DNA of 64,000 nt from a virus, in the IMG/VR virus record IMGVR_UViG_3300031519_006853, positions 1 through 64,000 of that record; one strand, 5' to 3'. Each line of letters begins with the position of its first letter. Within the stretch, counting starts at the first letter, position 1. A model generated the notes under the pieces. That model saw only the letters and a list, made by a program, of their open reading frames with translations. It did no database searches and was not told the DNA's origin. The translations under genes and the position numbers were made by a program. Below are positions 42 to 64,000 of this stretch, one piece after another.

Positions 42-1286
42 ATGAAAAATGTTAAAAGAGTAGGTTTCTTTAAACTTGGTAAAGCGATTAAGTTTAATGA
101 AAATAGTTGGGGAGCAATCGGTGGAGATTGTGAACCTAAGCAACTGATAAATTCAATTGCAAAAAGAAATCCTAATATTGAATATTGGATATTAAGTCCA
201 AATGATTTAGGTAGAGTTAGAGCAAAGGAAAAACCAGCAGTTCAATCATTATTTGGAGATCCTGTTGTAGCAGAGTTAGCAGCAGAACCAAATATTCATG
301 AGTTTCATTCTAAAATGGAGAACAGAAAATCTGCTGATGAAACTGTAAAATTTATAAAAGAATTAGATTTAGATTTTATTTTCTTTTATACTGGACCATC
401 AAGTACAGTTAACATACCTAATTATATTAACAAGAAAGATGGCAATGGTCAAGTTAAATCATTAGACTTTTTTAAATATTATGCGGCTCCGATAATTCAA
501 GCGATGAATGAGTTGGAAAAGAAAGTACCGATTGTTGGTTTGCTTGTAGATAACCGATATGTATTAGCCTGTAAAGATTGGGGTATTAATAATAGGCCTA
601 CATATTACTTAGCTCAAAATAATTTTACAAAAGAAGAACAATATTTTTATCAACCACCATTAAGGGATGTTAAAACTATTACATCTACTTATGAATATTC
701 AGGAATTGAAACTGTCTTTCTTTTAGATAAGACTAGATATAACACCGATGAATTGTTTGAAATGAAAAAGACAAACTCATTTATGATGTTACAAAATCAA
801 GGAAAAGGTACAGGCGGAATGGACCGATGGGATCCTGTTAAAGATTATATTGTAGAGAATGATATAAAGACTGATATTTATGGTAAGTGGGATGATGAAT
901 TAAAAGAAAAATATCCAGATTGGTTTAAAGGAGAAAAAAGAATTGAATCAATGACAGATGAATTACTTTCTACTAAGTATACCTTCTGTGTACCTATTAA
1001 AGAAGGAATGGTAACCTCTAAGTATGCTGAAATGCTACACTATGGTATTATACCATTCTTACATCCATCTTACGATACTGAATTTAATGTCTTCCCTGAT
1101 GGTCATTTCATTAGATGCAAATCTCCAGAAGATTTAAAAAAGAAAGTAGAGTTTTTAAATGCAAACCCAGATCATTATAAAAAGCTCTTTTATAATCTCC
1201 AAGAAAAATACTTAAAAGATTCCTATTATACTGGAGAACATGTAGATAATAAAATCTGGGAAGCTTATAACAAAATAACAAAATAA
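42..1286 (+). CDS. GT-B glycosyltransferase, T4 beta-glucosyltransferase-like (putative DNA glycosyltransferase)
   Basis: C-terminal half (IYGKW...TSKYAEMLHYGIIPFLHPSYDTEF...FIRCKSPEDLKKKVEFL) parallels the T4 BGT C-domain; in an operon with an NDP-sugar epimerase and a C5-MTase-like gene. Confidence 0.65.
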   Translation: MKNVKRVGFFKLGKAIKFNENSWGAIGGDCEPKQLINSIAKRNPNIEYWILSPNDLGRVRAKEKPAVQSLFGDPVVAELAAEPNIHEFHSKMENRKSADETVKFIKELDLDFIFFYTGPSSTVNIPNYINKKDGNGQVKSLDFFKYYAAPIIQAMNELEKKVPIVGLLVDNRYVLACKDWGINNRPTYYLAQNNFTKEEQYFYQPPLRDVKTITSTYEYSGIETVFLLDKTRYNTDELFEMKKTNSFMMLQNQGKGTGGMDRWDPVKDYIVENDIKTDIYGKWDDELKEKYPDWFKGEKRIESMTDELLSTKYTFCVPIKEGMVTSKYAEMLHYGIIPFLHPSYDTEFNVFPDGHFIRCKSPEDLKKKVEFLNANPDHYKKLFYNLQEKYLKDSYYTGEHVDNKIWEAYNKITK

Positions 1287-1290
1287 AAAT

Positions 1291-2313
1291 ATGTATAATT
1301 CAGAAACAAAAATCCTAGTAACAGGCGGTGCCGGCTTTATTGGTACAAATTTTATTAATGATTTATTAAATAGGGGCCATAACCCAGACTGTATTGCAGT
1401 TGTTGATAATATGTCTAATGGTACTTATATACCTAAAGTCCATGATAAAATTAAAAATTTTAATAAAGTAGATATTAGAAATCAATATGTTGAAACTGTA
1501 ATCGAAAAATTTGCACCTGATTATGTATATCATTTTGCAGGGTGGGTTTCTATATATGATTGCAACGCAGATCCTTATGAAGCAGTAGATAACAATATCT
1601 TAGGAAGTATTAATGTAATGAACGGTTGTGTTAAAGCAAATGTAAAAAGAATTATTTTTAGTGAAACTTCAGCAGTATATGAAAATTGTAAAATGGGTGA
1701 TGAAGGTTATAATGAAACACAATCAGATCCTACTACAATTTATTCTACAACAAAGGCATGTCTTGCTTTATTAGCAGAATCATACCAAAGAACTAAAGGT
1801 TTAAATTATACTGCACTTAGATATTTTAATGTAGCAGGACCTTTGCAAGATTATCATAGAACAGTACCTCCAGTATTTGCTGGATTTATACTAAGAATAA
1901 TGGGTGGTCATAATCCTATAGTGTTTGGTGATTATAAAAAATCAAGAGATTATATTAATGTTGCTGATGTTAATGCATTCCATATTCTCTGTATGGAAAA
2001 TAAAGATACTGCAAATCAAACATTTAATTTAGGAACAGGTAAAATGACAAACTTATTAGATCTTAAAAACTTAATTGCTGATGAAATGGATGTAAGCGGT
2101 ATACCGTTTGATCATTATGATGCAATTGCAGGCGAAGCTGTATATTCTTTTGGAGATGTATCTAAAGCAAAATCTATGGGATGGGATCCTAAGAAAGATA
2201 TTGTTGATACGATAAAAGAAACTATTGACTATTTAAAAAATGAAGTTAAAGAAGGCACCATTAATCCATTAACATTTATGGAAGATTTAGAAATTGAAAA
2301 AGTAAAAATATGA
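1291..2313 (+). CDS. NAD-dependent nucleotide-sugar epimerase/dehydratase (extended SDR, GalE-like)
   Basis: VTGGAGFIG Rossmann motif, YSTTK (YxxxK), LRYFNVAGP. Confidence 0.92.
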   Translation: MYNSETKILVTGGAGFIGTNFINDLLNRGHNPDCIAVVDNMSNGTYIPKVHDKIKNFNKVDIRNQYVETVIEKFAPDYVYHFAGWVSIYDCNADPYEAVDNNILGSINVMNGCVKANVKRIIFSETSAVYENCKMGDEGYNETQSDPTTIYSTTKACLALLAESYQRTKGLNYTALRYFNVAGPLQDYHRTVPPVFAGFILRIMGGHNPIVFGDYKKSRDYINVADVNAFHILCMENKDTANQTFNLGTGKMTNLLDLKNLIADEMDVSGIPFDHYDAIAGEAVYSFGDVSKAKSMGWDPKKDIVDTIKETIDYLKNEVKEGTINPLTFMEDLEIEKVKI

Positions 2314-3578
2314 ACAAAGAAAAAGAATTAAAGTGGGGTACTATGATTCCGTTAATCGGAGGTAGTGCAATAGGTTGCAATAAAGCAACAGGTAATTTAC
2401 CAGCATTTCATTTAAGCTATGAAGCTTTTGCTGCTAATGAAAGCCATATAGAAGATTATTGGCCAGATGTACCTATGTATAGAATAGATCACGAAGAATT
2501 AGATATTCCTAATCAAACATTCGAACAGGTAGATTTTGTAAATTCTGTTTGTCCTTGTGCAGGTTTATCGCAGTTAAATTCTGCTAGTGGTAGCGCCTCA
2601 TCTAGAGGATCTGATGCGGTCCAAAATCAATGGATGTATAATTCAGCAGAGTATGTTTTGGAGAATGTTAAACCTAAAGTCTTATGGGGTGAAAATGCAC
2701 CAGGTCTTTTTACTAAAATGGGGCAAGGTGTTGTTGATAATCTTAAAGCTATCGGTGAAAAATATGGATATAGCTTTTCATTAATTAAAACTAATACTGA
2801 ACTACATGGAATACCACAAAGAAGAATAAGAACATTTTATTTCTTTTGGAATACACCAACAGTACCTTTATTAGGATGGAAGTTTAGAGAAAAGAAACAT
2901 CTTATAGATTATCTTAAAGAAGTACCAGAAGATGCAACACTACAAGATATGTTTATGGTTGAAGGTAAAGTAACTGATCATTATAAACCTTATGAATTTG
3001 TATTGGAAAAGGAAGGTTTAAATCATGCTGATTTTGCTAAGAAATTTGGTAAAGGTACGATTGCTCAATATTTAGAAAAGAATGATCTTTTAGATGAGTG
3101 TATTAATTGGTTAGATAAAAAATATCATAAACAAGGATTCTCTAATAAAAAATCAACAAAATCATTTGGTGATATGCTAGAACACCAGAAATATAAAACA
3201 AGCCAAGGCTTAGGTTATTGGGATGCTTCACCGCATTTCTTTAATGAAAGCTTTTCTGCTCTTATTGGTAGAAATATGTTTAATGGTGTACACCCAACAG
3301 AAAACAGATATCTAAACATTAGAGAAATGTTACACTTAATGGGATTACCATTAGACTTTGGAATTAAAGATGCTAGGCAAGTTAATCATATTGCTCAAAA
3401 TGTACCAGCAACAACTGCAATGGATATGGCAGTAGAAGTTAAAAAATTCTGTGAAGGTAAAGCTAAAATGACAAACTTTACTTTTATGAAGCAGGATAAT
3501 ACAAGTCAGAAAATCTTAGTAACGGAAGAGCTAGGTGCAATACCTAAAAAGAAGTATAAAGTTAAGAGTACTTTTTAA
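2310..3578 (+). CDS. DNA cytosine-C5 methyltransferase-fold protein with atypical SAM-binding motif I
   Basis: Motif IV CPCAGLS (Cys83), VI ENAPGL, VIII GIPQRRIR, IX RYLNIREMLHLMGLP, X IAQNVP; motif I is IPLIGG instead of FxGxGG. Confidence 0.85.
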   Translation: MNKEKELKWGTMIPLIGGSAIGCNKATGNLPAFHLSYEAFAANESHIEDYWPDVPMYRIDHEELDIPNQTFEQVDFVNSVCPCAGLSQLNSASGSASSRGSDAVQNQWMYNSAEYVLENVKPKVLWGENAPGLFTKMGQGVVDNLKAIGEKYGYSFSLIKTNTELHGIPQRRIRTFYFFWNTPTVPLLGWKFREKKHLIDYLKEVPEDATLQDMFMVEGKVTDHYKPYEFVLEKEGLNHADFAKKFGKGTIAQYLEKNDLLDECINWLDKKYHKQGFSNKKSTKSFGDMLEHQKYKTSQGLGYWDASPHFFNESFSALIGRNMFNGVHPTENRYLNIREMLHLMGLPLDFGIKDARQVNHIAQNVPATTAMDMAVEVKKFCEGKAKMTNFTFMKQDNTSQKILVTEELGAIPKKKYKVKSTF

Positions 3579-45874: not shown

Positions 45875-47224
45875 ATGAAAAACACTAGAACTGTAACATC
45901 TTTTTTTGATAAAGAATATTTAGATTATGCAAGATATGTTGTAGAAAACAGAGCTATACCAAGTTGCATTGATGGACTTAAACCAACACAGAGAAAGGTT
46001 GTTTATATTGCAAATAAAATATGGAAAACTGGTAATGAAAAACCTATGAAGTTATTTCAACTTGCAGGTAGAGTTGCAGCTGAGGCTTTTTATCATCATG
46101 GTAATACTTCATTGGAATCTTCAATGGTTGGAATGGCTCAAAAATTTAAAAATTCATTACCATTACTAGAAGGCGTTGGTCAATTCGGTTCTTTAAGAAG
46201 TCCTGCTGCAGGTGCACCTCGTTATATCAGTGCAAAGTTGCATCCTAATTTTAGATTACTTTATCAAGACTTTGATTTATTAGAAAATAAAATAGAAGAA
46301 GGTGAAAAAATAGAACCTGCATTTTTCTTACCTATTGTACCAACCGTTATATTAAATGGTACATCAGGTATTGCCGTTGGTTTTGCTACAAATATTTTAA
46401 ATAGAAATCCTAAAGATGTGGTTGATGCATGTATATCTACTCTTAATAATAAAAAGATGAAAGTATTAGCTCCGTGGATACAAGAATTCAAAGGAACTTT
46501 TACTAGAGATTTAGAAAATCCAAAAACATGGAAGATCAAAGGTCAGTATCAAATTATTAATACAACCACAGTAAAGATAACTGCAATACCTCCAAATTAC
46601 ACATATGAAAGGTATGAAGAAATATTAAATCTTTTACAAGAAAAAGGTATAATAACTTCTTATGATGATAATTCGTCTGAAACTATTGAGTACATATTAA
46701 AATTCAGAAGGTCTGTATTAAATAGCTTAGTAAGCAGTGAAGGTAAATTGGAAAGGGCTTTAAGATTAAATACTCAGGAAACTGAAAACCTAACAACATT
46801 AGATGAAAATGGTAAATTAAAGATTTTTGATAAAGCTGAAGATATTGTAAAGCATTTTGTAGGTGTAAGGTTAATGTGGTATCAAACAAGAAAAGATTAT
46901 TTAATTGATAAAACAGAAAAGCAGTTAGCATTAGTAACAAATAAAGCAAGATTCATTAAAGATATTATTGACGGTAAGTTAAAAATTAATAATATACCTA
47001 AAGAAAAAATTGTAACTTATTTAAAAACTAATTCATATGATACTGTTCATGGTTCATATGATTATCTTTTATCAATGGCAATTCATTCTTTAACAAAAGA
47101 AAGATATGAAAAATTGTTATTAGAAAAAGAAGGGTGTATTATTGCACTCAAAACATTAAAAGCAACTGATCCTAAAGAAATGTATTTAGGAGATCTTAAA
47201 AAATTAAAGTTATCAATTAAGTAA
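45875..47224 (+). CDS. gp52: Type IIA topoisomerase breakage-reunion subunit (gp52, GyrA-like)
   Basis: DGLKPTQRK, YHHG, GAPRY catalytic Tyr, GIAVGF. Confidence 0.95.
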   Translation: MKNTRTVTSFFDKEYLDYARYVVENRAIPSCIDGLKPTQRKVVYIANKIWKTGNEKPMKLFQLAGRVAAEAFYHHGNTSLESSMVGMAQKFKNSLPLLEGVGQFGSLRSPAAGAPRYISAKLHPNFRLLYQDFDLLENKIEEGEKIEPAFFLPIVPTVILNGTSGIAVGFATNILNRNPKDVVDACISTLNNKKMKVLAPWIQEFKGTFTRDLENPKTWKIKGQYQIINTTTVKITAIPPNYTYERYEEILNLLQEKGIITSYDDNSSETIEYILKFRRSVLNSLVSSEGKLERALRLNTQETENLTTLDENGKLKIFDKAEDIVKHFVGVRLMWYQTRKDYLIDKTEKQLALVTNKARFIKDIIDGKLKINNIPKEKIVTYLKTNSYDTVHGSYDYLLSMAIHSLTKERYEKLLLEKEGCIIALKTLKATDPKEMYLGDLKKLKLSIK

Positions 47225-47265
47225 ACTTTTTTTAAAAATAACATATAATAATAAATCACAATACT

Positions 47266-47644: not shown

Positions 47645-47881
47645 ATGGCAAATACTAAAAATGTAATTTACGATGCGTTAAAATCGCAATTTGAAGCACA
47701 AAAACAAAAAGCTTTAGCAACATTAACAATTTATTTAACTAACCCAGTAGGCATTGGAGAACACCCTCAACATATTGATGAAATGATGGAAATGTCTAGA
47801 ACATTAGCAGAGGCAGAAGATGTTATTTCAACATTAGAAAGAACATTTGAATCTACCGAAGAATCTGCTCCGAATGAATAA
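47645..47881 (+). CDS. Conserved phage hypothetical protein
   Basis: YLTNPVGIGEHP motif. Confidence 0.65.
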   Translation: MANTKNVIYDALKSQFEAQKQKALATLTIYLTNPVGIGEHPQHIDEMMEMSRTLAEAEDVISTLERTFESTEESAPNE

Positions 47882-48353
47882 AGTTATATTAATAGGAAAG
47901 GCTGCTGCTGGAAAAGATCATATGAGAAAGGTTTTAGAAGGTAGAGGTTTTACATACGGTACTTCTTATACAACCAGGCCTCCTAGGAAAGGTGAAATAG
48001 ATGGCCAAGATTATTATTTTATTTCTGAAAAAGATTTTAAAAAATTTGCAGACAATAATTATTGGTATGAGTATGTAGAATTTAATGGATGGTTTTATGG
48101 AACTAGTTATGATCAATTTATGAATACTTGTAATTTGTTTGTAATGACACCTAAGGGTGTAGAAGCAGTAAATCCTATTCATAGAAAAGATTGTACAATC
48201 ATTTATTTAGATATACCTTTAGAAGTTAGAACAAATCGTTTAAAAGAAAGAGGTGATCTTAATGATAAAATCCAAAGAAGAATAGACGCAGATGAAGTTG
48301 ACTTTAAAGATTTTAAAGATTATGATATTTTAATAAACAATTCTAACTTTTAA
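47874..48353 (+). CDS. gmk: Guanylate kinase-like nucleotide kinase
   Basis: GKAAAGKD, TTRPPRKGEIDGQDYYF, FNGWFYGT; ATG at 47874 preferred. Confidence 0.9.
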   Translation: MNKVILIGKAAAGKDHMRKVLEGRGFTYGTSYTTRPPRKGEIDGQDYYFISEKDFKKFADNNYWYEYVEFNGWFYGTSYDQFMNTCNLFVMTPKGVEAVNPIHRKDCTIIYLDIPLEVRTNRLKERGDLNDKIQRRIDADEVDFKDFKDYDILINNSNF

Positions 48354-48371
48354 TCATATAAAAATAAAACA

Positions 48372-48983
48372 ATGAGTAAATTTATTATTATAGAAGGTAC
48401 CGATAATGTAGGTAAAGATACACAACAAGATTTAATTATTAAAAATATGAGTGAACATGTTTTTCATAAGTTACATTATTCATCATTACCGTTTAAAGAT
48501 GATAAAGAAAAGCATGCAACATATTCTAAAGAACTTTATGAAAGCATGTTTTTATTAATGATGAAATCCAAACTTGCTCATAAAAAAGGTGATGCAAATA
48601 TTAATCTTATATTTAATAGATCTCATTTAGGTGAAACTGTTTATTCTCCATTATATAGAGGTTACTCTGGTGATTATGTTTTTGATATTGAAAAGAAATT
48701 TACTAAAGCCTTAAGAGAAGATTTATATTTAATTACATTAACCAATGATCCACATACAATATTAAAAAGAGATGATGGTAAATCATTTTATGGTAATGAA
48801 GAAGAAGTTAAAGCTGAGGTTGATGGATTTAGGCGTGCTCATAGGTTAAGTACCATTAAAAATAAATTACATGTAGATGTAGGTACAATGAGTGCAATTG
48901 AAGTTTCTAATATTATTACAGATTTCTTAAATCATGAAAATACAGTAACAGGTGATAACAAACAATTAAACTTATTTGTGTAA
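48372..48983 (+). CDS. dNMP/thymidylate kinase-like (candidate modified-dCMP kinase)
   Basis: IIIEGTDNVGKDT P-loop, FNRSHLGETVY. Confidence 0.85.
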   Translation: MSKFIIIEGTDNVGKDTQQDLIIKNMSEHVFHKLHYSSLPFKDDKEKHATYSKELYESMFLLMMKSKLAHKKGDANINLIFNRSHLGETVYSPLYRGYSGDYVFDIEKKFTKALREDLYLITLTNDPHTILKRDDGKSFYGNEEEVKAEVDGFRRAHRLSTIKNKLHVDVGTMSAIEVSNIITDFLNHENTVTGDNKQLNLFV

Positions 48984-49171
48984 TGTCAACAGCTGAAGAT
49001 ATACTTTACCAAGCCCATTATGAAGGGATTAAAGATTTAGTTTTTAAAGAATCTAAAAGATTAAGAACAGAAGATCCAAAGAAATGGAAATATGCAGAAT
49101 ACGTAGTTGTATTAGAAGAAGCTTATAGGATAGTCAAAGAACGAAACAAAAAAAATAATGAGAACATATAG
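48983..49171 (+). CDS. Hypothetical protein
   Basis: 62-aa coupled ORF. Confidence 0.55.
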   Translation: MSTAEDILYQAHYEGIKDLVFKESKRLRTEDPKKWKYAEYVVVLEEAYRIVKERNKKNNENI

Positions 49172-50042
49172 AGGAGATACATTTGCAGATGTTTATGAAA
49201 AAGCATTAAGAGATACTTTAGACAATCCTGATTATACTTCTAAACCAAGAGGTATGGAAATTAAAGAAATATGCAATGCAGCCTTAGTTATAGATGATCC
49301 TTATTTTCCACTTTATGAAAATAAAAAAAGAAGTAGCCAATTTAAATATATTGCTGGTGAAACTGTATGGTATTTTACAGGAAGAAAGGATATTGATTTT
49401 ATAAGTAAGTATTCTAAATTTTGGAGTCAATTAGACAATGGTGATGGTACTGTAAACTCTGCTTATGGAAATCTTATATTTAAGGAATTACTTTCTGATG
49501 GTAGAAATCAATACCAATGGGCATTAGATTCTTTAATAGAAGATAAAGATTCAAGACAATCAATTATACACTTTAACAAACCTTCTCACCAATGGCAAGG
49601 TAATAAAGATTTTGTATGTACTCTTAATGGTGTATTTCAAATCAGAGATAACAGATTAAACTTTACTGTTGATATGAGATCCAATGATTTAATATTAGGT
49701 ACAGCAACTGATGTGGCATTCTTTTGTTTATTACAACAACAAATGTTAAAGCATTTACAATTATATTATCCTAATCTTAAAATGGGTTCGTATACTCATA
49801 TAGTTCATTCATTACATATTTATGAAAGACATTTTGAATTAGTAAAAGAAATGTTAAGCAATGAATTTACTCACATGTCATACCCACCTTTAAATAGAAA
49901 CTTAATTACAGCAAAGGGCCATCCTACTGATGAAATGAATTTATTAGAATTAGAAATTTTAGAAGAAGGTCCTGTTGCTTTATTTAAAGATCCATTATTT
50001 AAATGGTTATCTGATTATAGCTTTCAACTAACTGATATATAA
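49158..50042 (+). CDS. Thymidylate-synthase-fold dCMP-modifying enzyme (dCMP hydroxymethylase, gp42-like)
   Basis: VNSAYG, DFVCT (Cys154), MRSNDLILGTATD with Asp185 at the dUMP/dCMP specificity site, SLHIYERH. Confidence 0.82.
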   Translation: MRTYRGDTFADVYEKALRDTLDNPDYTSKPRGMEIKEICNAALVIDDPYFPLYENKKRSSQFKYIAGETVWYFTGRKDIDFISKYSKFWSQLDNGDGTVNSAYGNLIFKELLSDGRNQYQWALDSLIEDKDSRQSIIHFNKPSHQWQGNKDFVCTLNGVFQIRDNRLNFTVDMRSNDLILGTATDVAFFCLLQQQMLKHLQLYYPNLKMGSYTHIVHSLHIYERHFELVKEMLSNEFTHMSYPPLNRNLITAKGHPTDEMNLLELEILEEGPVALFKDPLFKWLSDYSFQLTDI

Positions 50043-50057
50043 TAAAATTACTTATAA

Positions 50058-51275
50058 GTGTTGAAATATCTAAAACTTTTTGAACAGTTCCTACACCTAA
50101 CAGAAAAGAAACCTGCCGGTGCTCCTGAATTCTATCACTCTGATGCACCTGATGCTGAAGGCAGATTCAAAGATCTTTCTATAAAAGATTTAGCTGCATG
50201 GTTAATTAAAACCAGAAAAAAGGATGTTAAAAAGATTAGCGGTTCTTTAACACAGCAGGTAGTTTTTAATAGAAAAAGCGATCCAAAGTATGCTGAAAAG
50301 ATGGAGAAAACCAGAAAAGAAGTATATAAACAATTAGGTAGAGAAGATTTATTAAAGGAATCGGTTAATACTGAAGGCGGTTTAGGTAAAGTTTATTTAG
50401 CATTAAGAGAAGATAGCGGACAAAGATGGTGGACTTATAAAGGTTTTGCTGGAGATAATTTCTTTACTCAGATCCATGAAAATAACATGAATGATATTGA
50501 TATTAATCCTGACTACCCAGTTTTAACATATCACTCAGATACAGTTAATAAACTAATAAAGGCTGGTAAGATTAAAAAAGAAAATGTTTATAACCACCCA
50601 GACCATATATCAAAATCTGGATCTAAAGAAGAATTCCATAAACTGGTTGGAGAAGATGAAAATATACCGAAGACAGTATATTCTAAAAATGATGCATTAG
50701 AAAAATTAGAATTTCCTATTATTGCAAAACCTGCAGAAGGTCATAGCGGTAAAGGTATTCAAATTATTAATAAACCAGATTTAATGGAAGATGTAGATGA
50801 AAAGATCTTTGATACATTTTCAGAATATATTGATAAAGAAGAAGAACATAGATTTATAAACTTTAAAGGTAAGCCTATCTTTTGGATGGAAAGAACTCCA
50901 TTAAATGAAAAAGCTAAAACTGGTAAAGGTAGTGCTAAAAGTGAAATGGAATTTGGTTATGCAAAAAGGAGCTTAAGTGATTTACCTGAAGATTATAGAA
51001 AAGTCTTAGAAAGATTCTGTAAGATCTATGAAGATTTACCTTATATGTGTTTTGATGTAATGAAAGGTAAAAATGGAAAAGTATATATTATTGAATCAAA
51101 TGCACAACCTGGAGTACCTTTTGATTCAACTGTTGAGGCTTATAAACATATCTATGAAGATTTTTATAAGAAACCTCTTGATAAAGAAAGTTTAACTAAA
51201 CTAAATGAATACGCAAAAACTATGATTGAAAAGACCCTCAAAAAAGATGGTGGTAAAAGATTTTCAATTAAATAG
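50058..51275 (+). CDS. ATP-grasp (RimK-like) ligase with N-terminal extra domain and CTS-like leader
   Basis: FPIIAKPAEGHSGKGI, SEYID..EHR, FDVM...YIIESNAQPG; GTG start. Confidence 0.85.
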   Translation: MLKYLKLFEQFLHLTEKKPAGAPEFYHSDAPDAEGRFKDLSIKDLAAWLIKTRKKDVKKISGSLTQQVVFNRKSDPKYAEKMEKTRKEVYKQLGREDLLKESVNTEGGLGKVYLALREDSGQRWWTYKGFAGDNFFTQIHENNMNDIDINPDYPVLTYHSDTVNKLIKAGKIKKENVYNHPDHISKSGSKEEFHKLVGEDENIPKTVYSKNDALEKLEFPIIAKPAEGHSGKGIQIINKPDLMEDVDEKIFDTFSEYIDKEEEHRFINFKGKPIFWMERTPLNEKAKTGKGSAKSEMEFGYAKRSLSDLPEDYRKVLERFCKIYEDLPYMCFDVMKGKNGKVYIIESNAQPGVPFDSTVEAYKHIYEDFYKKPLDKESLTKLNEYAKTMIEKTLKKDGGKRFSIK

Positions 51276-59520: not shown

Positions 59521-60171
59521 ATGATAAGCTTAGAGGAAATAAAAGAATTTTGTAAAGGCAAGAGTATTATCATAGTAGGCAATTCATCTAGGCTATTAAA
59601 TGAAAGACACGGTAAGTTAATTGATAGTTATGATATTGTAGTTAGAATCAATAAAGGATATCTTCATAGGCAAAATATTTATTCTGATAAAATTGGAAAT
59701 AAAACAACTATATTATCTTTAGGAATAAAATCTGCAACAATGTCAGCAAATGTTATTCAATCTAATACTGTAAAATATTTAATGAGTCCTATTATTTATA
59801 GTGACAGATTAGATTATGCTAATGTATATGATGTACAAGAAAATACATATAATGAGTTAAAGAATTCTTTAGGCGGATTTAAACCTTCATCTGGGATTAG
59901 TACTTATAATTTTTTTAATCGGCATACTAATTTTAATAAATTAGATTTAATTGGATTTGATTTTTTTGAAAGTTCAAGTAGGCAAAGAAATCAATTAGGT
60001 CATTGTTATGTTAAAGATCATCATGGAATTAAAGAAAAAAAATTCTTTGAGAATTCTAAAGATCCTAATAAAACAAGACTAATTAAAATAGAAGATGGTA
60101 GTGTTAATGTTAATGTACCAAGATTTATGGTTTCTGACAATTATCAAATAAAAAAATTAAATAAGAAATGA
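59521..60171 (+). CDS. GT29 sialyltransferase-like glycosyltransferase
   Basis: IVGNS.......G.LIDSYDIVVRIN (sialylmotif L-like), PSSG...LIGFDFF (S-like), distal H (VS-like). Confidence 0.75.
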   Translation: MISLEEIKEFCKGKSIIIVGNSSRLLNERHGKLIDSYDIVVRINKGYLHRQNIYSDKIGNKTTILSLGIKSATMSANVIQSNTVKYLMSPIIYSDRLDYANVYDVQENTYNELKNSLGGFKPSSGISTYNFFNRHTNFNKLDLIGFDFFESSSRQRNQLGHCYVKDHHGIKEKKFFENSKDPNKTRLIKIEDGSVNVNVPRFMVSDNYQIKKLNKK

Positions 60172-61694
60172 GTCGCAGGAACATAAAAAGAATAAAGCAA
60201 GATCCTAAGTCCTATGGAGATGAACCAAAGCAATTTCCTAAAGTTTCTATTAGGCCTAACTCTACAAATAAGATTCATAATGTTAAACAGAATATTCAAA
60301 AAAGAACTTTTGTTAATAGGAAACCTTTAACAGAACAAGTTAAAACTCCAATTAATTTTATAGATACAGCATTAGAGCAAGCAAACAGGGATATATGTTT
60401 TGTGATAGGTGGCGGTCCATCATTAAATGGATTTGACTTTTCTTCATTAAATGGCTTTGATACTATTGCAGTTAACAAAGTAGTAGAATATATGAATAAT
60501 CCTACTTACTTCATTACAACAGATTATTCTTATTTTATTAAAGCTTCATTGCCAATAGGAAAAATAAATCAAAAAGTAAGAAAAAGTTACTTTATTGCTA
60601 ATATGTCTCATTCTTATATGAAAATACAAAAAGAACAGGTTGTTGACACTCGTAGAAACTTTGTTTATGAAGATCTTTATCATTATGATGGGGTAATTCA
60701 ATCATATAACAAAACTGGATTTGGTTCTGATATAAGTGAATTTAGTCATGGAGAAAACAGTGGACACTGTGGAATTCAGTTAGCTTTACTGATGGGTTAT
60801 AAAAAAATATACTTACTAGGTTTTGATTTAAACTCTGGTGGGCAAACTCATTTTCATCAATCATATAGAGAAATTGACCAAGCTTCATTTAAGAAAAGAG
60901 TTAATACGTATGCTGGAACTTTATTGCAATCATTAGCTAAACATAATGGAGGCCAGGAGATAATTAATCTATCTTCATCAAGCATATTGACACAATCACC
61001 AAATATAATTAAAACTGAAACCTTTAAAGATGTTTTAGTGGAGCATGGTGTAAAGCACAGAGAAGTAACCAAAGGAGATAATCGTACACTTGATAATTTA
61101 ATGGTTGTCGGTTACTATACAGTTAATACACCATACGAAGAAGAGGCTAAAAATTTAATAAGATCTTTAAATAAATTAAGTGTTAATCATGATATTAGTG
61201 GAGTTAAGACTTTAGGCAATTGGCAAGCAAATACTAGATTTAAAGCAGGGTTTATGTTAGACATGTTAAATAAGTGGCCTAATCATAGATTACTATATGT
61301 TGATGTTGATGCTGTTGTTCATAGAATGCCAGAGTTATTTAAAAATTATAGTTGTGATATAGCTGTAAGATGGCAAGACTTTAGATGGAGAAAGAATGAA
61401 TGTTTAAGTGGAACTATTTATATGGAAAATAATGAAAGAACTCGGCGTATCTGTGAATTATGGAGGGATATAAATGTTAAAGAAGGTAATAAATCAAATA
61501 GAATGGAGCAGTGGAATTTAGATACTGTTATTAATAAAATGAAAGCAGAAGATCCTAACTTTACTTATAAGAATCTTCCACCAGAATATACAATGATATT
61601 TGATAGTATGAGAGGGATGTATCCTAATATTACGCCAGTCATAGAACATTTTCAAGCAAGTAGAAGATTCAAAAAAGACGTAAATGAAAGCTAG
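60168..61694 (+). CDS. Two-domain glycosyltransferase: DUF115/Maf (GT42-fold) plus GT-A DxD domain
   Basis: IGGGPSL...HGENSG...LLGFD...THFH; C-terminal LLYVDVDAVV. Confidence 0.8.
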   Translation: MSRRNIKRIKQDPKSYGDEPKQFPKVSIRPNSTNKIHNVKQNIQKRTFVNRKPLTEQVKTPINFIDTALEQANRDICFVIGGGPSLNGFDFSSLNGFDTIAVNKVVEYMNNPTYFITTDYSYFIKASLPIGKINQKVRKSYFIANMSHSYMKIQKEQVVDTRRNFVYEDLYHYDGVIQSYNKTGFGSDISEFSHGENSGHCGIQLALLMGYKKIYLLGFDLNSGGQTHFHQSYREIDQASFKKRVNTYAGTLLQSLAKHNGGQEIINLSSSSILTQSPNIIKTETFKDVLVEHGVKHREVTKGDNRTLDNLMVVGYYTVNTPYEEEAKNLIRSLNKLSVNHDISGVKTLGNWQANTRFKAGFMLDMLNKWPNHRLLYVDVDAVVHRMPELFKNYSCDIAVRWQDFRWRKNECLSGTIYMENNERTRRICELWRDINVKEGNKSNRMEQWNLDTVINKMKAEDPNFTYKNLPPEYTMIFDSMRGMYPNITPVIEHFQASRRFKKDVNES

Positions 61695-62583
61695 AAATAT
61701 AAATATACCAATGAAAGTACAATTCCCATCCCCTAACCCTGATTGGGCACGTAAATCAGATCCTAATGAAACTGGGCAATGGCATAAATACTACTCGACA
61801 CATCCTCAGTATGTACTGAACTTATTAACAAAAGGAGGTGCCAAAGTAGAAATGGTACCGGCTATATCTTTTAAATCTAGAAGTACAGTAAGTTTTGATT
61901 GTTTAATAGATGGTCATTTATGTAAATTTGATTTTAATGATCATGAAATTATTGATAGGGATGAATCATCTAAGTATAAGGCTTATTTTAAATTTCATTA
62001 TCATGAAAGTCATAGTATAGGGCCAAGAGAAAAAAATATATTTCCTTTTTCTCCAGTTAATTTTCATGATTGGGATCTTTATAATAAATTACAACCTATG
62101 ATTAATTATACTGCTAAAGGTAAAGTATTAAATAACCAAGCACCAGCAGGCGCGGCAGTTGCTCGAAGAAATCATGTTCATCAACTATTAAGAAATGCAT
62201 ACGGCGATCAATTAGATGCAGGTAGATATCCAAAAGAAGAATTTTATAAATTAATTAATAATGCAAGTGTTATTGTTTGCGTACCTGGTGCAAGAAATAA
62301 TATGTTAGATAGAGGCCATGGGCAACAACTAGGATTTGGGGCGTGCACAATATCGCCTAAATTAAATACAAGACTATCATACCATGGGAGGTTAATACCC
62401 GGTGTTCATTATATAGAATGTAAACCTGATTATAGTGACTTAATAGAAAAGGTAAATTGGGTTAGGTCTAATAGAGATACAGCAATTAAAATAGGAAAAG
62501 CTGCCAAAAAATTATTTTTAGAAACTTCAACACCACAAAAACAAGTTGAATGGATAAAGCAATGTGTAAATAGAAATGAATAA
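61684..62583 (+). CDS. GT-B glycosyltransferase (GT90/Glyco_trans_1_2-like)
   Basis: IPGVHYIECKPDYSDLIEKVNWV...IGKAA C-terminal signature. Confidence 0.7.
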   Translation: MKARNINIPMKVQFPSPNPDWARKSDPNETGQWHKYYSTHPQYVLNLLTKGGAKVEMVPAISFKSRSTVSFDCLIDGHLCKFDFNDHEIIDRDESSKYKAYFKFHYHESHSIGPREKNIFPFSPVNFHDWDLYNKLQPMINYTAKGKVLNNQAPAGAAVARRNHVHQLLRNAYGDQLDAGRYPKEEFYKLINNASVIVCVPGARNNMLDRGHGQQLGFGACTISPKLNTRLSYHGRLIPGVHYIECKPDYSDLIEKVNWVRSNRDTAIKIGKAAKKLFLETSTPQKQVEWIKQCVNRNE

Positions 62584-63355
62584 AACAGGAGTAATAGTAA
62601 TTAATTTAAATACATACGGATATACTCGTAGATGTATTGAAGATCTGTTAAAACAAAACGTTCCATTTGATTTAACATTAGTAGACCAGGCATCGCAAGA
62701 AGCAGGGATACGAGAGTTTTTTGAATCTGTCAGATCTTTGTGGGGTAATAGAGGCAAACTTACTATTAAATATAATACTATAAATGAACCTCTTAATGAA
62801 GTTTGGAATACTTTTGCAAAGGAATCTGATAATGAATATTTATGTTATTTAAATAGTGATGTAAGAATTCCTTCTAATTTTATTAAAGATAGTGAATCTG
62901 TTTTTGCATTAGAACCAACAGTAGGAATTACCGTACACTCGACTAATCATCCTCATTGGTTAACTAATGCATCCCATCAATTAAATTATAAAATACCAAC
63001 TAATCAAAAAATTAAACAAGGGTGGGATTTTACAATAAGAAAAACTGATTGGGAAATAATACCTGAGATTCTTCAAATATTTTGTGGTGATGATTTTATT
63101 TTTTATAAATGTTTTGTAAAAGATAGAAAAGTTTCTTATATTTTAAGCTCTCCTATTTTACATTTCCAGGGGATGTCACAAAAACCAGGTTACAAATTAA
63201 AATTACCACCTAGAAAAGATAATTTTGAAAGTGATGTTAAAGCATGGGCTAGTTTAGGTTGGCCTGTAGGATCAACTCGCAAAATCAATGATGAATACAC
63301 TAGAATTAAACCAACTTTAGATTTAGTACAAAGATATGCAAAAGGAATACTTTAA
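62576..63355 (+). CDS. GT2-family glycosyltransferase
   Basis: VIVINLN, VDQAS, LNSDV, FCGDD. Confidence 0.8.
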   Translation: MNKTGVIVINLNTYGYTRRCIEDLLKQNVPFDLTLVDQASQEAGIREFFESVRSLWGNRGKLTIKYNTINEPLNEVWNTFAKESDNEYLCYLNSDVRIPSNFIKDSESVFALEPTVGITVHSTNHPHWLTNASHQLNYKIPTNQKIKQGWDFTIRKTDWEIIPEILQIFCGDDFIFYKCFVKDRKVSYILSSPILHFQGMSQKPGYKLKLPPRKDNFESDVKAWASLGWPVGSTRKINDEYTRIKPTLDLVQRYAKGIL

Positions 63356-64000
63356 TATTTTTATAATTGCAACAATCGGCAGGCCTTCACTCAAAGAAGC
63401 TATAAATAGTTGTCTTAATCAAAGGAGAGAAACTTTAGTAGTTGTAGTATTTGATGATGAAGAAATTATAAGGATAGTAGATAATCCTAATGTGATATAT
63501 TTAAAAACAAAAAAACATGTTTGGGGTGAAGGTGCTAGACAGTATGGTGTCGATTGGTGTAAAGATAACAAAATAAAATCTACTTACATTTCTTATTTAG
63601 ATGATGACGACATTATCCTTCCTTCTTACACAGATAGTTTAGAACAATTTTTATCCTATGATATTGTTGTTCATAGTATGAAGATTTTTGAAAACGGAAG
63701 AATTGTACCAGAACAAGGTTATTATAATTATCCTAATTTACCAGAAAGTAAAAAAATACAAATTTCAACAAGACCTTTAGTTAAAAATTATGTAGGGTTA
63801 AGTTTTAGTTTAAAATGGAATAAAGCTAAAAATATAAATTGGTATTCTAACGGAGCTGAAAAAGATTTTAATTATATAGATGCTGCATGCAAAAGTGGAC
63901 TTACTCATATTAAAACTGGCAAAGTATCTTATCATCAATTAACAAGAGGATTAACAGGCTCTCATACTAATCGCAAATTTGGTGTTCATGATACTTTTAA
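63336..64000 (+). CDS. GT2-family glycosyltransferase (partial, runs off the window)
   Basis: Manual translation MQKEYFNIFIIATIGRPSL..AINSCLNQ...YLDDDD; open to base 64000. Confidence 0.8.
   Translation, partial: MQKEYFNIFIIATIGRPSLKEAINSCLNQRRETLVVVVFDDEEIIRIVDNPNVIYLKTKKHVWGEGARQYGVDWCKDNKIKSTYISYLDDDDIILPSYTDSLEQFLSYDIVVHSMKIFENGRIVPEQGYYNYPNLPESKKIQISTRPLVKNYVGLSFSLKWNKAKNINWYSNGAEKDFNYIDAACKSGLTHIKTGKVSYHQLTRGLTGSHTNRKFGVHDTF

Follow-up and report, generated by a model that had tools for sequence, protein, structure and literature searches.

The 64,000-nucleotide stretch analysed here (hereafter the window; positions 1 to 64,000 of the IMG/VR virus record IMGVR_UViG_3300031519_006853) is the start of a viral contig of 181,663 bp with a G+C content of about 30%, nearly all genes of which lie on the + strand. 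At 49158-50042 it contains an open reading frame (ORF) for a protein of the thymidylate synthase (TS) superfamily (PF00303, 86 bits), and databases label this TS-like protein thymidylate synthase. The question raised by the locus is whether the enzyme makes thymidylate at all, or acts on deoxycytidine monophosphate (dCMP) and thereby supplies a modified cytosine before replication. We consider it likely that the protein is a T4 gp42-type dCMP 5-hydroxymethyltransferase that depends on folate and would feed a pre-replicative modified-cytosine pathway. An initial annotation, made from the letters alone, had proposed a dCMP-specific enzyme making 5-hydroxymethyl-dCMP (5hm-dCMP), and the proposal came through every sequence-level comparison described below (determinants of base, sugar and product, a separate ThyA, and a conserved adjacency to kinase genes).

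The catalytic cysteine, Cys154, was found within DFVCT, and Asp185 within MRSNDLILGTATD. Translation and alignment bore out the initial annotation in the position of these two residues and in the 31 residues between them, a spacing that is also found in T4 gp42 (Cys148/Asp179) and RB69 td (Cys156/Asn187). When the protein was aligned with HMMER to the PDB entries 1b49 (T4 dCMP hydroxymethylase) and 5jnh (MilA), Asp185 fell on their specificity Asp. Asn177, which occupies this position in Escherichia coli ThyA, gives specificity for deoxyuridine monophosphate (dUMP), and Asp there gives specificity for dCMP; methyl products correlate with a bulky residue at the Leu143 position, and hydroxymethyl products with an acidic residue there, and the change of Asp169 to Asn marks flavin-dependent 5-hydroxy-dCMP synthases (PMC13326640). 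As for the sugar, the preference of MilA for cytidine monophosphate (CMP) is due to Ala176 and Lys133', deoxy-specific enzymes have Ser and Arg, and the A176S/K133R mutant of MilA switches to dCMP (PMC5175136). The diagnostic residues of the TS-like enzyme were invariant across a 64-sequence alignment with identities down to 26%. Among 138 representatives of 50%-identity clusters, Asp was present at the Asp185 position in 137, and Asp at all three positions (Leu143, Asp169 and Asn177) was common to 136. Asp185 is thus no chance feature of this enzyme.

Control enzymes with a known product were taken from GenBank records and placed in one alignment with the query, and the residues at Leu143, Asp169 and Asn177 (E. 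coli ThyA numbering) were read in this order. The query, with 5hm-dCMP as its predicted product, has Asp151, Asp177 and Asp185, and T4 gp42 (5hm-dCMP) has Asp, Asp and Asp; the Xp12 enzyme (5-methyl-dCMP) has Asn, Asp and Asp, RB69 gp48 (5-hydroxy-dCMP) Glu, Asn and Asp, the SP8 enzyme (5-hydroxymethyl-dUMP) Asp, Asp and Asn, and RB69 td, like the ThyA of the contig itself (both dTMP), Leu, Asp and Asn. The full pattern of the query (D151/C154/S175/D177/D185 together with R133) was identical to that of T4 gp42, which was the sole control pattern that fits. Asp at the Leu143 position was also found in the Xp15 and Bacillus phage G homologues.

These controls bear on two alternatives. The enzyme might be an Xp12-type dCMP methyltransferase that yields 5-methyl-dCMP, the folate giving both the carbon and the hydride as in ThyA; Asp at the Asn177 position is common to the query and the Xp12 enzyme, and the rule for the Leu143 position is correlative. 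We regard this reading as improbable, given that Xp12 has Asn at the Leu143 position, that DFVC of the query resembles DFMC of T4 gp42, and that the query has hydroxymethylases as its closest characterised matches in sequence and structure; moreover, the Xp12 gene adjoins a dihydrofolate reductase (DHFR) gene, which fits a hydride-consuming chemistry, and phmmer detected no homologue of the Xp12 DHFR in the contig. More doubtful still is a flavin-dependent 5-hydroxy-dCMP synthase of the RB69 gp48 or DLP3 gp80 type (PMC13326640), which uses flavin and O2 and would here feed O-glycosylated 5-hydroxycytosine. The query shares with these enzymes the TS fold, Asp at the Asn177 position and an acidic side chain at Leu143, its neighbourhood likewise includes genes for a small kinase and for sugar nucleotides, and its genome includes a candidate glycosyltransferase, but the diagnostic Asn at the Asp169 position is absent (Asp177 is kept in the query and in 137 of the 138 relatives) and RB69 gp48 is distant in sequence (3e-13, versus 8e-29 for T4 gp42).

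Sequence and structure searches placed the protein with the hydroxymethylases. In the PDB sequence search, MilA (2e-25) and T4 gp42 (5e-24) preceded the ThyA entries (from 3e-13). The model made with AlphaFold2 (AF2) from 64 homologues had a predicted local distance difference test (pLDDT) score of 96.7, and Foldseek with this model returned MilA first (E 2.5e-22 to 1.4e-21; template modelling (TM) score 0.71-0.81 over about 300 columns), T4 dCMP hydroxymethylase second (1.5e-17), and the ThyA structures after them. The match with MilA of Streptomyces rimofaciens (PDB 5JNH/5B6D/5B6E) extends over a C-terminal helical extension that is absent from T4 gp42, and MilA likewise has Asp at both the Asn177 and the Leu143 positions. 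As MilA is the best match in both sequence and structure, the possibility has to be weighed that the query is a MilA/BcmA-like CMP hydroxymethylase with ribonucleotides as substrates, serving RNA or a small molecule and not DNA. This has the slightest chance of the readings considered here: Ser175 and Arg133 stand where MilA has Ala176 and Lys133', which is the deoxy-specific pattern, and the gene lies among phage replication and deoxynucleoside monophosphate (dNMP) kinase genes, whereas MilA belongs to an antibiotic pathway and not to a phage replication module. The likeness to T4 gp42 (PDB 1B49/1B5E/6A9A) comprises the fold, the Cys-to-Asp spacing, DF(V/M)C, MRSND, the HxY ribose motif, and the Arg and Ser deoxy determinants; the two differ in that identity is only about 31% and that the query has 294 amino acids, with a C-terminal helical extension of about 50 residues, versus 246 in T4 gp42.

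A protein of this superfamily may also be a uracil-nucleotide enzyme, either a second thymidylate synthase or a dUMP hydroxymethylase. The database name says so, a comparable gene pair was interpreted in a study of marine myophages as "two different thymidylate synthases" (PMC7029224), and the SP8 dUMP hydroxymethylase nests in the same radiation. Nevertheless this reading is about as doubtful as that of the 5-hydroxy-dCMP synthase. Asp185 stands where all uracil-specific controls keep Asn, and among the NCBIfam ThyA equivalog models tested, all with cut-offs above 300 bits, the best score was 63.5 bits versus a cut-off of 327; with Asp185, Asp151 and this score, the protein departs from a canonical ThyA. 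The initial annotation had suggested a search of the rest of the genome for a true ThyA and a dCTPase (on the latter, see below). A full canonical ThyA, which scores 299 bits and has Leu and Asn as its two diagnostic residues, was indeed found at 101212-102228 of the contig, and a dCMP deaminase gene lies at 125918-126391 of the contig; since a canonical ThyA is present, the Asp-type enzyme is not the thymidylate synthase of the phage. As for LR756500 (a 462-kb uncultured phage), the search of the whole record LR756500.1 with PF00303 gave an Asp-type homologue only and no canonical ThyA.

The gene context was also informative (Table 1). The initial annotation had placed two nucleotide kinases directly 5' of the TS-like gene, and family searches recovered both. 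The order topoisomerase, KTSC, orf78, guanylate-kinase-like, thymidylate-kinase-like (Tmk-like), orf62 and TS-like was conserved in 29 related viral contigs (63-96% identity). Outside this group, LR756500 has a TS-like protein of 54% identity with a Tmk-like gene (45% identity) directly 5' of it, and in Bacillus phage G the TS homologue gp319 lies no more than 2.5 kb from gp315, the N-terminal part of which matches the Tmk-like kinase, with a dCMP deaminase and an annotated alpha-glucosyltransferase in the neighbourhood of gp319. The product of the phage G gene gp315, annotated as thymidylate kinase (L047, 1480-2475), was found to consist of a Tmk-like kinase fused to a domain of the uracil-DNA-glycosylase superfamily. 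The Xp15 homologue of the TS-like gene adjoins genes for a carbamoyltransferase and a dCMP deaminase, and the Xp15-type arrangement was shown experimentally to give 5-carbamoyloxymethylcytosine by carbamoylation of 5-hydroxymethylcytosine (5hmC) (PMC8670742).

Table 1. Features of the window discussed in the text, with window positions; NDP, nucleoside diphosphate
Feature	Position	Strand	Basis or remark
Probable GT-B glycosyltransferase, candidate 5hmC-DNA glycosyltransferase	42-1286	+	Foldseek, PF13524 in relatives, gene context
NDP-sugar epimerase/dehydratase, likely sugar-donor supply	1291-2313	+	PF01370 158 bits, phrog_540
Divergent C5-cytosine DNA methyltransferase-like protein	2310-3578	+	PF00145 67 bits
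Promoter-like motif, second copy, 5' of the KTSC, orf78 and guanylate-kinase-like genes	47223-47248	+	
Guanylate-kinase-like kinase	47847-48353 (likelier ATG start 47874)	+	PF00625 77 bits, phrog_1815 1.7e-39, PDB guanylate kinases 6e-15
Promoter-like motif AAAC-N16-CATATAA, just 5' of the Tmk-like gene	48335-48361	+	
Tmk-like P-loop kinase, predicted (hm)dNMP kinase partner	48372-48983	+	PF02223 24 bits, phrog_761 8.7e-14
62-amino-acid ORF between the Tmk-like and TS-like genes	48983-49171	+	No family; shared by most close relatives
TS-fold enzyme, predicted dCMP 5-hydroxymethyltransferase (5hm-dCMP synthase), 294 amino acids	49158-50042	+	PF00303, AF2, Foldseek, signature residues
Arg133 codon	49554-49556	+	E. 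coli Arg126' / MilA Lys133' position; deoxyribose-type; invariant in the 64-sequence alignment
Asp151-Phe-Val-Cys154	49608-49619	+	Acidic side chain at the E. coli Leu143 position, and catalytic Cys
Arg174-Ser175-Asn176-Asp177	49677-49688	+	Phosphate/ribose Ser (deoxy-type), and Asp kept at the E. coli Asp169 position
Asp185 codon GAT	49710-49712	+	E. coli Asn177 / T4 Asp179 position, cytosine specificity
Example sites of AAAC-N15/16-YATATAA	3578, 4444, 5856, 7388, 43963, 47223, 48335, 53751	+	

The pathway that we propose runs as follows. Cys154 would attack C6 of dCMP, Asp185 would read the N3/N4 face of the cytosine, and Ser175 and Arg133 would select the deoxyribose form; with the acidic Asp151 at the mouth of the active site, water and not the folate hydride would quench the exocyclic methylene, giving 5hm-dCMP. 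The Tmk-like kinase, possibly with the guanylate-kinase-like enzyme, would then make the diphosphate and the NDP kinase of the host the triphosphate, so that the phage replisome could put 5hmC into DNA instead of cytosine, and dTMP would come from a separate source, the canonical ThyA, which the dCMP deaminase of the phage would feed. The GT-B-like protein encoded at the start of the window would probably glycosylate 5hmC once replication is over, with a sugar nucleotide tailored by the adjacent epimerase. The fold of the TS-like protein, its residues, and the gene context with its conservation are what the analysis showed; the activities, the modified base in DNA and the glycosylation are put forward as predictions.

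Several points weigh against a T4 gp42-type enzyme feeding such a pathway. Every enzymatic and DNA-chemistry step in it is drawn from sequence, and the rule for the Leu143 position is a published correlation and not a proven determinant. The score of the Tmk-like kinase is below the Pfam cut-off (27 bits for PF02223), the PDB sequence search gave no relative of it, nor does it resemble the T4 gp1-type enzymes. The gene for a C5-cytosine methyltransferase (C5-MTase)-like protein would not be expected in a genome with every C5 position already substituted. The phylogenetic comparison suggested in the initial annotation was non-diagnostic for function: in a quick tree of the TS-like homologues the deep nodes were unresolved and long branches were joined, and the SP8 dUMP hydroxymethylase fell among the Asp-type sequences, so that we assigned function from a few residues and not from phylogeny. 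Finally, the other enzyme that the initial annotation had proposed to look for, a dCTPase, was not detected: the 181.6 kb gave no dCTPase/dUTPase-type enzyme with five Pfam families (MazG, PRA-PH, dUTPase, dUTPase_2 and MazG-like, and thus trimeric as well as dimeric dUTPases) or with T4 gp56 by phmmer. The negative is a weak one, in that even T4 gp56 scores no more than 25 bits on PF08761 and that part of the genome is missing from the contig. Relatives of the phage reach about 219 kb, so 30-40 kb may be unseen and the negative is soft; as it stands, the exclusion of dCTP, and hence full replacement of cytosine, is unsupported.

We then considered the genes at the other end of the window, since the initial annotation had suggested that the two loci act in series (5hmC first, then a sugar or another group). 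The GT-B-like protein had no Pfam or PHROG match of its own, and its AF2 model was poor (pLDDT 61.6). Among the Foldseek matches listed for this low-confidence model, all were glycosyltransferases (GTs), mostly of the GT-B type; ranks 2, 6 and 11 were taken by T4 alpha-glucosyltransferase and ranks 22-30 by beta-glucosyltransferase, and PF13524 was found in close relatives of the protein. Its homologues in cultured phages are few, and all of them adjoin Asp-type TS homologues, in three unrelated phages. Enterococcus phage 9183 has a row of Tmk, TS-like, dUTPase, sugar isomerase, NDP-sugar pyrophosphorylase and GT-homologue genes; Agathobaculum phage AB434P2 has a row of cytidylyltransferase, GT-homologue and TS-like genes; and Pseudoalteromonas phage XG4 has, within 6.5 kb, TS-like, orf131, NDP-sugar pyrophosphorylase, GT-homologue, orf368 and C5-MTase-like homologue genes. 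The adjacency in these three phages gives independent comparative support for the suggested order of 5hmC followed by a sugar. GT-B enzymes have been reported to be often associated with ThyS-type genes, and GT and epimerase genes to pair (bioRxiv 10.1101/2023.12.21.572611). For the glycosylation of 5hmC by the GT-B-like protein, that step taken by itself, we consider the case for and the case against to be about evenly balanced.

Two of these phage records deserve comment in their own right. The XG4 region (vB_Psh_XG4, an unannotated record; L062, 100-6580) is a compact candidate cytosine-hypermodification cluster with a T4 gp42-like TS, and the phage is cultured, so that its DNA is directly analysable. 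In AB434P2, the gene at 3838-4500 of L061 is annotated as deoxyuridylate hydroxymethyltransferase, yet its product shows the complete T4 gp42-type signature, including Asp at the Asn177 position. This annotation is probably mistaken, and the enzyme more likely acts on dCMP.

The C5-MTase-like ORF, which had been noticed for its fold in the initial annotation, proved to be real, with PF00145 and the motifs PC (CPCAGLS), ENA, QRRIR and QNVP. Its homologues were found only in Pseudoalteromonas phage XG4 and in cyanophages of the S-TIM5 group, and the XG4 arrangement links the gene to the modified-cytosine pathway in one or more phages besides this one. Neither the GT-B-like nor the C5-MTase-like protein has a homologue in LR756500, so a TS-like gene does not everywhere go with the cluster at 42-3578. 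Searches of PDB sequences with the GT-B-like protein, the C5-MTase-like protein and XG4 orf368 gave no usable match.

Other decorating enzymes were sought in the contig. T4 alpha- and beta-glucosyltransferase and Dam gave nothing by phmmer against all of its ORFs. No Tet/JBP dioxygenase (PF12851) was found in the contig, so a route to 5hmC by a C5-MTase and a dioxygenase is unsupported there. The phmmer searches of the contig with the Xp15 carbamoyltransferase, the cluster proteins of RB69, Enterococcus phage 9183 and XG4, and the Xp12 DHFR gave no match except to the dCMP deaminase and one cytidylyltransferase.

A sugar-nucleotide cluster lies just upstream of thyA at 97672-100920 of the contig (L035, 15672-18920), and encodes a cytidylyltransferase-like protein, an NDP-sugar 4,6-dehydratase, and a fusion of an FkbM methyltransferase with an RmlD-like reductase. 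The cytidylyltransferase-like protein of this cluster is homologous (1e-26) to ORF05 of AB434P2, the neighbour of the GT and Asp-type TS homologues there. The cluster may supply the sugar used on DNA. A more specific picture, which we consider rather unlikely, is that of an abundant marine large-phage lineage combining pre-replicative replacement of cytosine by 5hmC with an unusual sugar (maybe CDP-activated, deoxy or methylated, from the thyA-adjacent cluster), an undescribed GT-B family (that of the GT-B-like protein), and a C5-MTase-fold protein that would not simply C5-methylate the phage DNA; the last protein may, for example, act on residual cytosine in a partly substituted genome or have a different chemistry.

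Set beside the known systems, the predicted dCMP 5-hydroxymethyltransferase and its partners are closest in outline to those of T4, the genome of which also has a separate ThyA, a dCMP deaminase and a DNA glycosyltransferase (here a predicted candidate). They differ from T4 in that the partner kinase is Tmk-like and not T4 gp1-like, and in that sequence searches of the contig detected neither a gp56-type dCTPase nor a homologue of the alpha- or beta-glucosyltransferase of T4. The Asp-type TS systems of metaviromes and phages (MetaGPA, PMC8670742; Xp15; bioRxiv 10.1101/2023.12.21.572611) likewise combine an Asp-type TS, a dCMP deaminase, a hydroxyl-decorating transferase, and a GT with an epimerase. 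Unlike in those systems, the TS-like gene here lies 46 kb from the cluster of GT, epimerase and C5-MTase-like genes, neither a carbamoyltransferase nor a 5-methylcytosine dioxygenase was found in the contig, and the GT-B protein is without a Pfam or PHROG match.

The distribution of the locus was examined in public data. Megablast of the 8.6-kb region against the GenBank phages gave no match. A 9-kb stretch was present (half or more of its words) in 14 DNA runs; these belong to eight or more studies of marine, seawater or brine samples. Hundreds of homologues with 58-91% identity were found in public metagenomes, including Tara samples. Contigs from marine RNA libraries match parts of the TS-like gene without a mismatch (e.g. 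49041-49339 and 49440-49634 in X16), and the parts left uncovered carry no meaning; such contigs are no demonstration of expression and may stem from carried-over DNA, so they are at most a hint of transcription.

Cytosine modification in phage DNA is a well-known anti-restriction strategy. If the proposed pathway is correct, a widespread marine phage lineage would carry cytosine that is fully or partly hydroxymethylated and probably glycosylated, which would affect the recovery of these phages by standard library preparation and sequencing, as well as their evasion of host restriction and of clustered regularly interspaced short palindromic repeats (CRISPR) systems. "Second thymidylate synthase" genes in marine myophages could then be dCMP hydroxymethylase genes, and by analogy one of the two thymidylate synthases of the myophages in PMC7029224 may be such an enzyme. 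The principle, the diagnostic residues and the GT-B association are already published (PMC8670742; bioRxiv 10.1101/2023.12.21.572611), and what is specific here is the abundant uncultured lineage of marine large phages, the Tmk-like partner kinase, the unannotated GT-B family and the co-occurring C5-MTase-fold protein; the T4 paradigm would thus be extended and not changed. For the making of modified DNA, candidate tools would be the 5hm-dCMP synthase, whose C-terminal extension is MilA-like, together with the small Tmk-like kinase and the new GT-B family.

The remaining observations concern the surroundings of these genes. The motif AAAC-N15/16-YATATAA was present in 14 copies on the + strand of the window, versus 0.9 expected, and is likely to represent a phage-specific promoter class. 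The copies mostly precede replication and nucleotide-metabolism genes, and two precede the kinase and TS-like genes; a motif common to both sets fits their co-expression. Apart from the cluster at 42-3578, the window contains at 59521-64000 a run of glycosyltransferase-type genes (GT29-like, MptE/sialyltransferase-like, and then ORFs without a family match). The ATP-grasp gene at 50058-51275, directly after the TS-like gene, was considered as a member of the pathway and rejected, as it does not adjoin the TS-like gene in LR756500 and its identity among close relatives ranged from 35% to 97%, with the flanking genes stable. Its N-terminus was a third reason for the rejection: the ATP-grasp protein begins with MLKYLKLFEQF, and similar starts (MKYIKLFEKF, MKHVKLFEQW and MKHIKTFDSINE) were found in three unrelated proteins of the contig (contig positions 93389, 95079 and 175985); these leader peptides fit a putative common N-terminal targeting leader.

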